From a virus: a stretch of 64,000 nt of DNA. The stretch is taken from positions 1 through 64,000 of IMG/VR virus record IMGVR_UViG_3300047409_000574, one strand, 5' to 3'. Below the pieces are notes generated by a model. The model was not told the origin of the DNA. It saw only the letters and a program-made list of their open reading frames with translations, and searched no databases. The position numbers were made by a program, and so were the translations under genes. Of this stretch, positions 50,847 through 53,800 are shown in pieces. Within the stretch, counting starts at the first letter, position 1. Every line of letters starts with the position of its first letter.

Positions 50847-53800
50847 CTCGCAGCCGCCGGAGCGGCAGCCGCCACCCGGAACCCTTCCCCCCGGTGAGGT
50901 GGCTGCCGCTCTTGGTGTGACCGCCGGTGCGGGCGCTGCGGTGGTGGCCCCGGCCGCGCCGGGCGTGGTGGTGGGGGCGGTCAGTGAGGCTGGGCTGCTG
51001 GCGGCGATGGCGGCGATCGTCAAGGCGTTCAGTGTGTTCCAGCGCAAGCGCCGGAAGGATGAGGCGATCTGGTTGACGGTGGCGTTGCGCCGCCAGTTTC
51101 CGCATCGCACGGAGAAGCAGATCACGACGCTGGTCGATGATGAGCTTCGCCGGGAGGCGGAGTTCCAGCGGAAGGCGCGCGACCGGATGGAGCGTGATCT
51201 GCCGAAGGCGTTGCGCATCTCTGATCCGGTGGAGCGGCAGGCGGCGGTGCAGGCGTTGCTCGACCGGGAGAAGCGCTACGTGGACATGCGTGAGGAGGCG
51301 ATGGCGAAGCGCGCGTCGGCGAAGGCGGAGTTGCACGACGTGAAGGAGGTCTCGCCGGACGGCGCGTACTGGAAGCTCGGCGACGCGGTCACCCACACTC
51401 TGGACTGTCACCCCCCAGGGGTTCTAGTCGAGGGGCCGGAGGCGCTGGCGTCCTTTGCCCGGCCATATACGGGAAAGCTCCTCCGCATCATGCTCGCCGG
51501 TGGACAGGAGCTTGCCGTCACCCCAAACCACCCGGTACTGACCGACGCCGGGTGGAAGGCCGCGAACACGATCCATGAAGGCGACTGCCTGTTCTGCGGC
51601 GGCAGGGGCGAGGGGGACGGCCTCACAGTGGACGACCATCAGGATGCGCCATCCAGCATCGCGGAGGTGTATCAGGCGCTTCAAGACGCGCCGACGAGCT
51701 TTAGGGCCACACGCAGTATCGGTGCGCTCGATTTCCACGGCGACGGCATGCCCGAGTCCGAAGTCAACGTTGTAGCGCTCGGCCGCGACTTGTTGAGGGA
51801 CTGGGTCGAAGCCCAGGTCGATGAGCCAGTCCCCGAAGATGTGTTCCTCGTTCGTGATCCAATGTGCGCTGGCCTGGCGACCGTTGGCGCGCGCGAGCAG
51901 CGCCGCGTCGGAAGGCTTGATTCCCTTGCGGGCGTGTTGGCCGACGGCGACGGCGACACGCCAGGTAGCTCTCTCGTCCGGGGTCATTCGGCCGACTGCC
52001 AGAGTCGTCGCTTCTCTGACGCCGCGTATCGTGACTCCCGCCTTGAGCAGCTTGCCCTTGAGCGCCTTGCGCGAGATGGAAAGCTCGTCGGCCAGACGCT
52101 TGACGGACTCGCCGGTCTCATAACGACGGACTATGTCGTCGAGGTTGTCGAGGACGATTTCTCTGGTCACGTCTACAGCCTTTCAACTCGTGGCGGGTGG
52201 TATGCGGCCAACGGAGTGATCGTCGCCAACTGCATGTTGATGGCCGAGCGCTTCTGGCCTTGGGTCGTATTAGACCAAGTTCACCCTCTCATGCATACCG
52301 GTTGCAAATGCTATTTGGTTTCCAAGCGAGAAGCCGTCGAGCGGGGCTACATGGAAGCGGACTTCGTGCCAGACGAGAAGGACGCCGTCGCAACCGCTGT
52401 TGCGAACATGCGCCGCGCCGGTCACATCCAGGAGGTGGCTTGGCCGGAGGAGATCGAGCAGTTCATCGAGGACACGCTGACCGAGGCTGACGAGGGCGCG
52501 TCGCTCGACGGGGCGATGATCGCGTTCTATGTGGAGCCGACCACGGCGAAGAAGCTCGCGCTCGGAGGCAAGGACACCGAGCCGCCGGAGCAGTTGCATG
52601 TCACGCTCAAGTTTCTGGGGGACGATGCGAGCAAGATCAAGAACCGCGCGAAGATCGAGCGGGTGCTGGCGGAGTTCGCGGCGGGCGAGAAGCCACTCGT
52701 GGGGAAGGTCGCGGGTCTCGGTGAGTTCAAGGCACCGTCGGGCGGCAAGGAGGGCACGGTGAAGCCGGTGTTCGCTAAGCCGGACGTGTCCGGCCTGTCG
52801 GCGTTCCACGATCGGCTGATCGACGCGCTGGGCAAGCTCGTGCGCGAGGACGACTACGACAGCTATGTGCCGCACATCACGCTGGCCTATGTGCCGAAGT
52901 CGAAGCCGCTCGGCGAGGTGGAGAAGCCACCGGCGTTGCCGTTGCGCTTCGAGGAGATCACGCTGGCGTGGGGCGGGGAGAAGAAGTCGTGGAAGCTTGG
53001 GGCGAAGCTCCAGGAGGCCCGGTGGGAGCGGCGCTTCCCGAAGGGGAGCGAGCACGCGGGTGAGTTTATGCCGAAGGCGGCGACGGCGATCCGGCGGACG
53101 GTGCGGGCGGCGCTCAAGGACTTGGTGCCTGCGAAGCCGGTGCCGTTGTTGCAGGAGCGCGGGAAGCCGCAGGGCCGCCATGTCTGGTTGCGTGGCCGGT
53201 TCGTGTTTGTGCCGCGTCGGAAGGCGTGGAACCGGAAGCTCGACCATGTGCACTTCCACTCTCCGGCGCAGTCCACGAACATCTACCGGAACGGGAATCT
53301 GGTGCAGATCGAGGGGCAGCCTGCGCCGCCGCACCATCACGATCTGAACCCGCCGACGGGCGCGGACATTCGCAACATTCCCGGCACGGCGGAGTACGAC
53401 CCCGGCCACCCGGACAAGGGCGATCCCGGCAAGCGTTCGGCGCGTTCGCAGGGGCGCACACGTGAGCAGGAGATCGGTTCGCTGGAGTCGCTGCTGCGCG
53501 ACCCGGAGCTTCCGCGTGACGATCGGATTCGCTATTCGGCGAAGTTGGCGGAGCTTCGCGGCGACCACAAGTTGGCGGCGAGCTTGCGCGCTCGACTGGG
53601 CGACAAGGGGGGCGTGCACGACGCACCGGACTTGAGCGACGAGGCTGTCGTGGCGTTGCGCGAGAAGATCGTTCAGGCGCGCGCGCCGGAGATGGATGAG
53701 GTGAACGCGCGGGTCGAGCGGGCGCTGGCCGAGCAGGACTTCAACGTGAAGCCGATCCTCGACGGTGACTCGATGCCGATTGTGTCGGAGGTGCTCGAAG

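Follow-up and report, generated by a model that had tools for sequence, protein, structure and literature searches.

A phage intein that carries a predicted Vsr-like nuclease gene on its opposite strand

Results

An intein and an antisense gene at the same locus

We analyzed a stretch of 64,000 nucleotides from an uncultured soil phage (positions 1 to 64,000 of IMG/VR record IMGVR_UViG_3300047409_000574; hereafter called the window). It contains a giant open reading frame (ORF) on the plus strand that is interrupted in frame by an intein, and inside this intein a second ORF, which encodes a putative nuclease, is located on the opposite strand. The host frame opens at 50821 and, according to the ORF list of the window, stays open past 63999. 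In the full record, which comprises 126,255 bp and is estimated to be 91% complete, it extends over 5280 aa from stop to stop. The features of the locus are collected in Table 1.

Table 1. Features of the intein locus (positions are those of the window)
Feature	Positions	Strand	Remarks
Portal gene	48012..50267	+	phrog_10963 portal protein, E 3.9e-26 (PHROG); upstream of host gene
N-extein	50821..51405	+	First 195 codons of giant host ORF (ORF list); no Pfam or PHROG MuF match
Intein	51406..52230	+	275 codons, Cys1 to Asn275; in frame in host ORF
N-terminal Hint segment	51406..51600	+	Codons 1-65; pLDDT 94-98; sense conservation above antisense over codons 1-60
Antisense gene	51424..52170	-	248 aa plus TAG stop; GTG start at 52168-52170; AlphaFold2 pLDDT 90.2; tblastn matches to 79 phage records
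Vsr/EDxHD-like nuclease domain (predicted)	51493..51864	-	Residues 103-226 of antisense protein; overlaps sense codons 30-153, block B included
Block B	51520-51531	+	T39-P-N-H42; T39 and H42 invariant in 62/62
Doubly constrained codons	51730..51747	both	Sense D-F-H-G-D-G, antisense A-V-A-V-E-I (catalytic-strand Glu146)
Helix-turn-helix (predicted)	52021..52170	-	Residues 1-50 of antisense protein
C-terminal Hint segment	52120..52230	+	Codons 239-275 (block F G-H-V-Y-S-L, block G ending A-N); pLDDT 94-98; sense conservation above antisense
Shine-Dalgarno-like AAAGG	52179..52183	-	Weak; 8 nt before GTG; in-frame TGA just upstream at 52183-52185
Start of C-extein	52231..52311	+	Cys+1; H-T-G-C-K-C 21-26 residues further on

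The predicted splice nucleophiles of the insert are Cys1 (TGT, 51406-51408), which is invariant across 57 aligned inteins, and Cys+1 (TGC, 52231-52233). The intein ends with G-V-I-V-A-N, the codon of Asn275 (AAC) ending at 52230, and is directly followed by Cys+1. Pfam returned a match to the splicing domain that is split by a large insert (E 3.2e-7, under the curated cut-off), and the test for a class 1 intein found the Hint fold in the sense protein. In terms of pLDDT, the score predicted for the local distance difference test, the sense model is best defined over both Hint segments (residues 1-65 and 240-275; Table 1), reaches 73-95 over residues 81-130 and falls to values under 50 between residues 130 and 195. 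With Foldseek alone, neither the sense nor the antisense model had a match at E 1e-3 or better, and VIA-align was used instead. All structure matches of the sense model were inteins and none was a nuclease. The preliminary description of this DNA, which had been made from the letters alone, read the insert as an in-frame 275-aa intein with Cys1, a T-P-N-H block B and an I-V-A-N end followed by Cys, and noted no LAGLIDADG or HNH motif on the sense strand of its central insert; both statements agree with our results. Judged by sequence and model, the insert is a contiguous class 1-type intein that is predicted to splice, and the middle of its sense product appears to be largely a low-confidence linker.

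The antisense ORF lies wholly within the intein and uses the same triplets as the sense frame; the sense peptide D-F-H-G-D-G-M, for example, is read as H-A-V-A-V-E-I on the other strand. Weak Pfam matches of its product were obtained to REase_MTES_1575, a Vsr-related, restriction-endonuclease-like family (E 6.4e-4), and to HTH_7 (E 1.2e-3). The structure model of the antisense protein, built on a 51-sequence alignment, has a predicted template modeling score of 0.76 in addition to the pLDDT given in Table 1, and VIA-align of this model identified the fold as Vsr-type, which is derived from PD-(D/E)xK. By sequence, the profile of the antisense family matched the solved proteins 3hrl (E 1.3e-6), 3r3p (E 5.5e-4) and 1cw0 (E 0.013). 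That the 248-aa ORF is in exact codon register and wholly inside the intein, and that its product consists of a helix-turn-helix followed by a Vsr/DUF559-like nuclease, had been proposed beforehand. The former could be verified on the DNA and the latter by Pfam, profile and structure model, and fold prediction of both frames distinguishes a Vsr-type antisense protein from a Hint-type sense protein.

Relatives of the antisense protein

A tblastn search with the antisense protein found matches in 79 phage records, all of them covering at least 80% of the query at 29-34% identity and with E values down to 3e-16. The hosts are Salmonella (62 records) and Gordonia (8); the rest are listed under Escherichia, Idiomarinaceae, Cronobacter, Pantoea, Shigella, Jerseyvirus and Vibrio. 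In Gordonia phage Vivi2 (E 3e-16, 34% identity, 84% of the query), the match runs antisense to a MuF-like gene and an ORF of 285 aa is open. In Escherichia coli phage Snoke it lies antisense inside the annotated intein of a head-morphogenesis gene (open ORF of 269 aa), and in phage Malisha antisense to an unnamed gene after the portal gene (open ORF of 316 aa). Neither the 30 listed phage records nor those of these three phages have a separate nuclease gene annotated at the matching position; for Snoke, the annotation comprises the intein and omits the gene within it.

As a single query, the antisense protein of the window found no homologous protein at E 1e-3 or better in a word-limited search, and a single-protein search for related IMG/VR loci returned none; the loci were recovered with an alignment query alone. 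This alignment-based scan of IMG/VR confirmed 256 loci, the best 80 of which were kept, and the values on openness, identity and codon choice given below for the family refer to 62 unique inteins. At each of the 80 kept loci, the GC content of which ranges from 0.39 to 0.73, an opposite-strand frame of 279-1443 aa spans the whole match in the same register. Together with Snoke, Vivi2 and Malisha, these are the homologs in which the antisense frame was checked and found intact. At one IMG/VR locus (L079:249-935), the C-terminal splicing motifs of the sense frame look degenerate, which may reflect a decaying copy or an assembly error.

At E cut-offs of 1e-3, 1e-10 and 1e-30, the profile of the antisense family matched 26,450, 5,962 and 1,729 protein representatives, respectively. 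Ten of the top matches were looked up; all are single or near-single members of 90%-identity clusters, and one of them is named 'transposase-like protein'. The contigs of nine measure 955-2948 nt, that of the tenth 16,340 nt. For the Snoke head protein, relatives were found in 671 phage records, just 75 of which cover the intein; close relatives, with 78-93% identity, extend over about 1035-1041 nt and are thus intein-less. Such a patchy presence is the distribution expected of a mobile element.

Both frames are under selection across the family

For the window taken alone, an open antisense frame, which the preliminary description had pointed out, carries no weight as evidence: the probability of this stretch being open is about 0.64, which is what chance would give. 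The only sense codons that are read as stops in the antisense register are TTA, CTA and TCA, and these account for 7 of 4393 codons in the giant ORF, which has a GC content at third codon positions (GC3) of 0.87. Long stop-free antisense runs therefore arise by chance, and the giant ORF indeed contains same-register runs of 2002, 905 and 645 codons of such origin. These runs would fit the explanation that the antisense ORF is a by-product, that is, a chance frame in GC-rich DNA whose supposed homologs mirror the conservation of the sense intein, and so would the conserved antisense motif G-Q-Y-R-V-V-W-G, which is the mirror image of intein block B. We nevertheless regard a by-product as very improbable, since it is contradicted by the Vsr-type fold described above and by the three family-wide observations that follow, namely the openness of the frames, the switch of conservation between the strands and the substitutions at the antisense wobble base. 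The remark in the preliminary description on atypical sense codons proved correct: 77 of the 275 codons of the intein end in A or T (28%), compared to 473 of 4118 in the remainder of the ORF (11.5%; Fisher p 1.1e-12). Furthermore, the sense GC content at first codon positions exceeds GC3 between 51721 and 52170.

The probability of a frame staying open was computed from each phage's own extein codon usage. It amounts to 1e-2 to 1e-13 per low-GC locus, and log10 P summed over the 62 unique inteins reaches -97.6 (sense frame) and -116.6 (antisense frame). The sense value also bears on the possibility that the host gene is truly split, as in the 'fractured genes', with trans-splicing of the host protein and the nuclease gene placed between two split-intein halves. 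Vsr-like endonuclease genes are known from that position (Dassa 2009, PMC2677866). However, the sense frame is uninterrupted in the window and at 80/80 loci, without a stop or restart; in low-GC relatives its openness is far beyond chance; and the endonuclease gene in the cases presented in that paper has the same orientation as the split gene. A split host gene is therefore highly unlikely.

Mean pairwise identity over the 62 inteins gave the same picture with a sense- or an antisense-based alignment. Over codons 1-60, the sense frame is the more conserved one (0.33-0.61 versus 0.17-0.46 for antisense). Sense and antisense identities are similar and mostly low over codons 61-120. The antisense frame is ahead over codons 121-240 (e.g., 0.53 and 0.40, with sense values of, e.g., 0.34 and 0.20), and over codons 241-275 the sense frame again (0.51 versus 0.30). 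Substitutions were counted by sense codon position in 11 independent pairs of 64-90% nucleotide identity. The numbers of differences at positions 1/2/3 were 108/55/221 in the N-terminal splicing part, 788/427/576 in the centre and 58/34/132 in the C-terminal splicing part. The centre is clearly distinct from the two ends summed (166/89/353; chi-square 128, p 1e-28), and in 11/11 pairs more of its differences fall on position 1, which is the antisense wobble base, than on position 3. Selection on the antisense frame, for which the preliminary description had suggested a check, is thus visible both in conservation that switches strand along the intein and in changes that concentrate at the antisense wobble base. 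Taken together, openness and conservation of both frames are maintained throughout the family, and selection alternates between the strands along the intein.

The antisense gene reaches into the splicing blocks

In this family, the antisense gene extends beyond the linker into the splicing blocks, its ORF stretching between block F and block A/B. The block-F His/Gln codon, read as its reverse complement, provides the start codon in 56/62 inteins (ATG 44, GTG 11, TTG 1), and a GGAG or GAGG sequence formed by the block-F N-L-Q codons is found 5-16 nt upstream of the antisense start in 41/62. The block-F His is encoded by CAT, which gives an antisense ATG, in 27 of 36 GC-rich inteins, compared to 85 of 347 His codons in the exteins (p 2.8e-9); for inteins that are not GC-rich, the corresponding figures are 17 of 19 and 76 of 177. 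The window copy uses CAC and consequently has an antisense GTG.

At the other end of the gene, the codons of antisense residues 206-226 lie opposite block B. Here, T39 is encoded by ACC in 55/62 inteins, P43 by CCG or CCT in 54/62, and V/I44 by GTA or ATA only in 58/62, which specifies antisense Tyr212; the neighboring sense residues T46 and G49 vary freely. The codons of T39, V/I44 and P43 are fixed beyond the need of either protein alone. The same seems to apply to the sense motif D-F-H-G-D-G in the centre of the intein, with CAC in 57/62, GGC in 58/62 and GAY in 59/62 inteins, opposite an antisense E146 that is present in 62/62: judged from these codons, sense F-H-G-D-G is fixed beyond what antisense V-A-V-E needs and appears to be under selection from both strands. 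In this register, double coding comes at little cost, since TTA, CTA and TCA are the only codons that either frame must do without.

The nuclease of the window copy

Among 51 nucleases of the family, the putative catalytic acidic residues are E109 (49/51), D136 (51/51), E146 (51/51) and D171 (29 D and 14 N), and all of them are present in the window copy. Their match to residues of I-Bth0305I follows from the fold and the profile matches, and not from a residue-level superposition. The window copy retains 8/8 invariant and 16/17 nearly invariant residues of the family; E109, Q126, Y133, N134, D136, E146, R165, D171, G173 and W174 are all in place.

Several observations weigh against a functional homing intein in the window, in addition to the chance openness of its antisense frame. 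The GGxWH motif of the nuclease lacks W-H, which is replaced by T152 and A153, and the preceding G-G is changed to R-T. The missing His occupies the position of the general base (Vsr His69, I-Bth0305I His213) and is present in 37/51 relatives. The gene has a GTG start, and its ribosome-binding site, which the preliminary description called plausible, is weak (AAAGG at a distance of 8 nt). A scan of 51300-52700 for sigma-70 promoters and terminators yielded 0/0, a result of limited meaning in a genome that is actinophage-like. In the sense protein, Asn275 is preceded by Ala and not by His. Relatives mostly end in H-N, and some in S-N, K-N or R-N; inteins without a penultimate His can splice. 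IMG/VR contains no close relative of the C-extein and hence no intein-less allele of the host gene, and mapped reads of the probable source run showed no variants of the window copy, with identical fragments occurring in a second soil run. Finally, decayed copies are perhaps under-sampled among the loci we analyzed, which are the best 80 of 256.

The nuclease gene of the window copy could consequently be a decaying or repurposed relic inside an intein that still splices, either drifting or kept for DNA binding or regulation by its helix-turn-helix. The absence of the general-base His and the adjacent Trp together with the G-G to R-T change, the GTG start with its weak AAAGG, and the lack of any intein-less or variant allele in IMG/VR and the mapped reads would all suit a relic, and in a GC-rich genome an unselected antisense frame would remain open anyway. 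On the other hand, the ten residues named above, including all four acidic ones, and nearly all of the nearly invariant positions are retained, and 14/51 relatives are equally His-less. Most of the latter have a '..N-P..R' loop and belong to one clade of 16 rows in a quick tree (SH-aLRT 89), in which both frames are open at low GC. The His thus seems to be dispensable in that clade. The window copy itself is placed on a long branch of this tree. We consider a relic possible, yet distinctly the less probable explanation, and put the odds that the predicted nuclease of the window copy is still active at roughly even. As a separate observation, the '..N-P..R' loop of the His-less nucleases may represent a variant active site.

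We conclude that the locus very probably represents a contiguous intein whose homing endonuclease has a gene of its own, encoded on the opposite strand in the same triplet register. From this arrangement we infer transcription, translation, cleavage, homing and splicing. The combination of splicing from the sense strand and a separate antisense nuclease, as suggested in the preliminary description, is supported at the level of the family, and might, as also suggested there, uncouple homing from late virion gene expression, while nuclease activity of the window copy is uncertain given the absent general-base His.

The insertion site and the host gene

The junctions of the window intein, T-H-T-L-D/C and A-N/C-M-L-M, differ from the H-P-N/C-x-C site of most relatives. 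One IMG/VR locus, L019:2926-3891 (minus strand), shares the spacing of the window, and both inteins (2/62) seem to be inserted before a Cys about 23-24 residues upstream of the usual site. In an hhalign alignment (E 7e-4, probability 27%), the +1 Cys of L019 precedes the H-P-x-C motif by about 26 profile columns. An upstream insertion site common to the window intein and L019 is likely. The same motif may contain a second target site, at the upstream Cys.

We could not confirm that the intein resides in a MuF domain, as had initially been stated. Pfam, PHROGs, hhalign, an ESM Atlas look-up and BLASTP against the L019 exteins gave no MuF signal for either extein. Phage_Mu_F was not found in them even at a permissive E cut-off of 10, the hhalign probability stayed below 1%, and PF04233 has no match anywhere in the 126-kb record. 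In comparison loci, PF04233 was detected in the N-extein of L041 (E 1.2e-9) and at L019 (E 0.053). Two features favor a MuF identity of the host, namely its position directly after the portal gene and a C-x23-H-x-G-C-K-C motif.

Elsewhere in the giant host ORF (50821-63999, plus strand), residues 589-717 match a 2H phosphoesterase (Pfam 2_5_RNA_ligase2, E 2.2e-10), and recurring G-E-K-G-D/G motifs separate apparent domains. A 624-aa antisense ORF in the same register (52270-54144, minus strand) adjoins the intein; it shows no sign of being a gene and illustrates the long open mirror frames of GC-rich coding DNA. Outside the window, at about 69907-71883 of the record, a 659-aa ORF on the plus strand matches LAGLIDADG_3 (E 5.1e-8) and, weakly, that portion of the intein profile which covers block B (E 1.1e-3). 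This ORF probably represents a second intein-type element of the same phage, one of the canonical kind.

Discussion

How such an element could work can be outlined from its parts. The host protein would be translated straight through the intein. The two Hint segments (codons 1-65 and 239-275) would then fold together and excise the 275 residues via Cys1, T39xxH42, Asn275 and Cys+1. From the GTG opposite the block-F His codon, a 248-aa protein consisting of the helix-turn-helix, a helical linker and the Vsr/EDxHD-like nuclease would be made, which, by analogy with I-Bth0305I, would cut intein-less alleles during co-infection. Repair would copy the intein and the nuclease gene in as one unit.

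The preliminary description knew of no account of this arrangement. The layout has, however, been described: Gosselin, Arsenault and Gogarten (bioRxiv 10.1101/2025.01.02.630785, version dated 2025-10-20) report that, in actinophages, full inteins of minor capsid proteins contain anti-sense VSR-like endonucleases. According to this preprint, 63 of 784 PhagesDB inteins contain non-canonical endonucleases, including anti-sense VSR-like and anti-sense LAGLIDADG types, and inteins of minor capsid proteins are exclusively non-canonical; antisense LAGLIDADG cases are credited there to Gorbalenya 1998 and Gogarten 2002. Our literature search, which covered the preprint without its supplements, yielded no further account of antisense Vsr-like nucleases within inteins. 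The window has in common with the published inteins the contiguous intein, the opposite-strand nuclease ORF inside it and the Vsr-like fold, and its antisense protein is homologous to the counterpart in an actinophage, Gordonia phage Vivi2. It differs by its origin from an uncultured soil phage, the giant 5280-aa host frame, the lack of a detectable MuF domain and a seemingly different insertion site. The preprint is based on PhagesDB only, and its main text mentions neither Salmonella nor start codons nor ribosome binding; the overlap with blocks F and B, the doubly fixed codons and the second site are likewise not described in its main text.

Other known systems share single aspects with the window. 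The 'fractured genes' (Dassa et al. 2009, PMC2677866) also combine an intein with a separately translated Vsr-like endonuclease gene that has its own start signals, but as presented there a Vsr-like or GIY-YIG gene lies in the same orientation between split-intein halves, whereas the window has a contiguous intein with an antisense gene placed codon on codon. I-Bth0305I (Taylor et al. 2011, PMC3239194; PDB 3R3P), the EDxHD prototype, is described as encoded on the sense strand of a group I intron; the window nuclease possesses the EDxHD acidic residues, but not the His of the motif. The antisense LAGLIDADG inteins of Synechocystis DnaX and a Chloroflexus SpoVR-like protein, as far as reported, are alike in their opposite-strand endonuclease and differ in nuclease family and hosts. 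A system described in 2025 (PMC11855218) likewise has a mobility nuclease hidden within an in-frame insertion of a phage gene, in a different reading frame, although, in the form presented there, on the same strand, without a splicing domain and with an HNH nuclease. The antisense-nuclease layout is thus already known, and the window is an additional, somewhat atypical example of it. Its atypical points are a host that is not detectably MuF, the seemingly different site, the His-less nuclease and the Ala as penultimate residue.

The start codon and Shine-Dalgarno sequence opposite block F, the last beta-hairpin opposite block B and the doubly fixed codons suggest that the nuclease gene may be an old partner, written codon for codon onto the splicing domain, and not a recent passenger of the linker. 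The unit would then have spread across phages of Actinobacteria and Proteobacteria and, in the window and L019, to a second target site, which in the window would lie in a host domain that can no longer be recognized as MuF. We give this scenario an even chance.

The antisense layout explains why the nuclease has been missed by gene callers and in GenBank records. The element is far more widespread than the actinophage survey shows, given that 71 of the 79 phage records are not from actinophages, but from phages of Salmonella, Escherichia, Vibrio and other hosts, in addition to the 256 loci in IMG/VR and the 1,729 protein clusters matched by the profile at E 1e-30 or better. It also offers a simple experimental handle, since sense-synonymous TTA, CTA or TCA codons would disable the antisense gene alone. 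It presents double coding in a clean natural form, with about 750 bases specifying one folded protein on each strand, and its layout speaks in favor of the splicing and homing functions having arisen separately.

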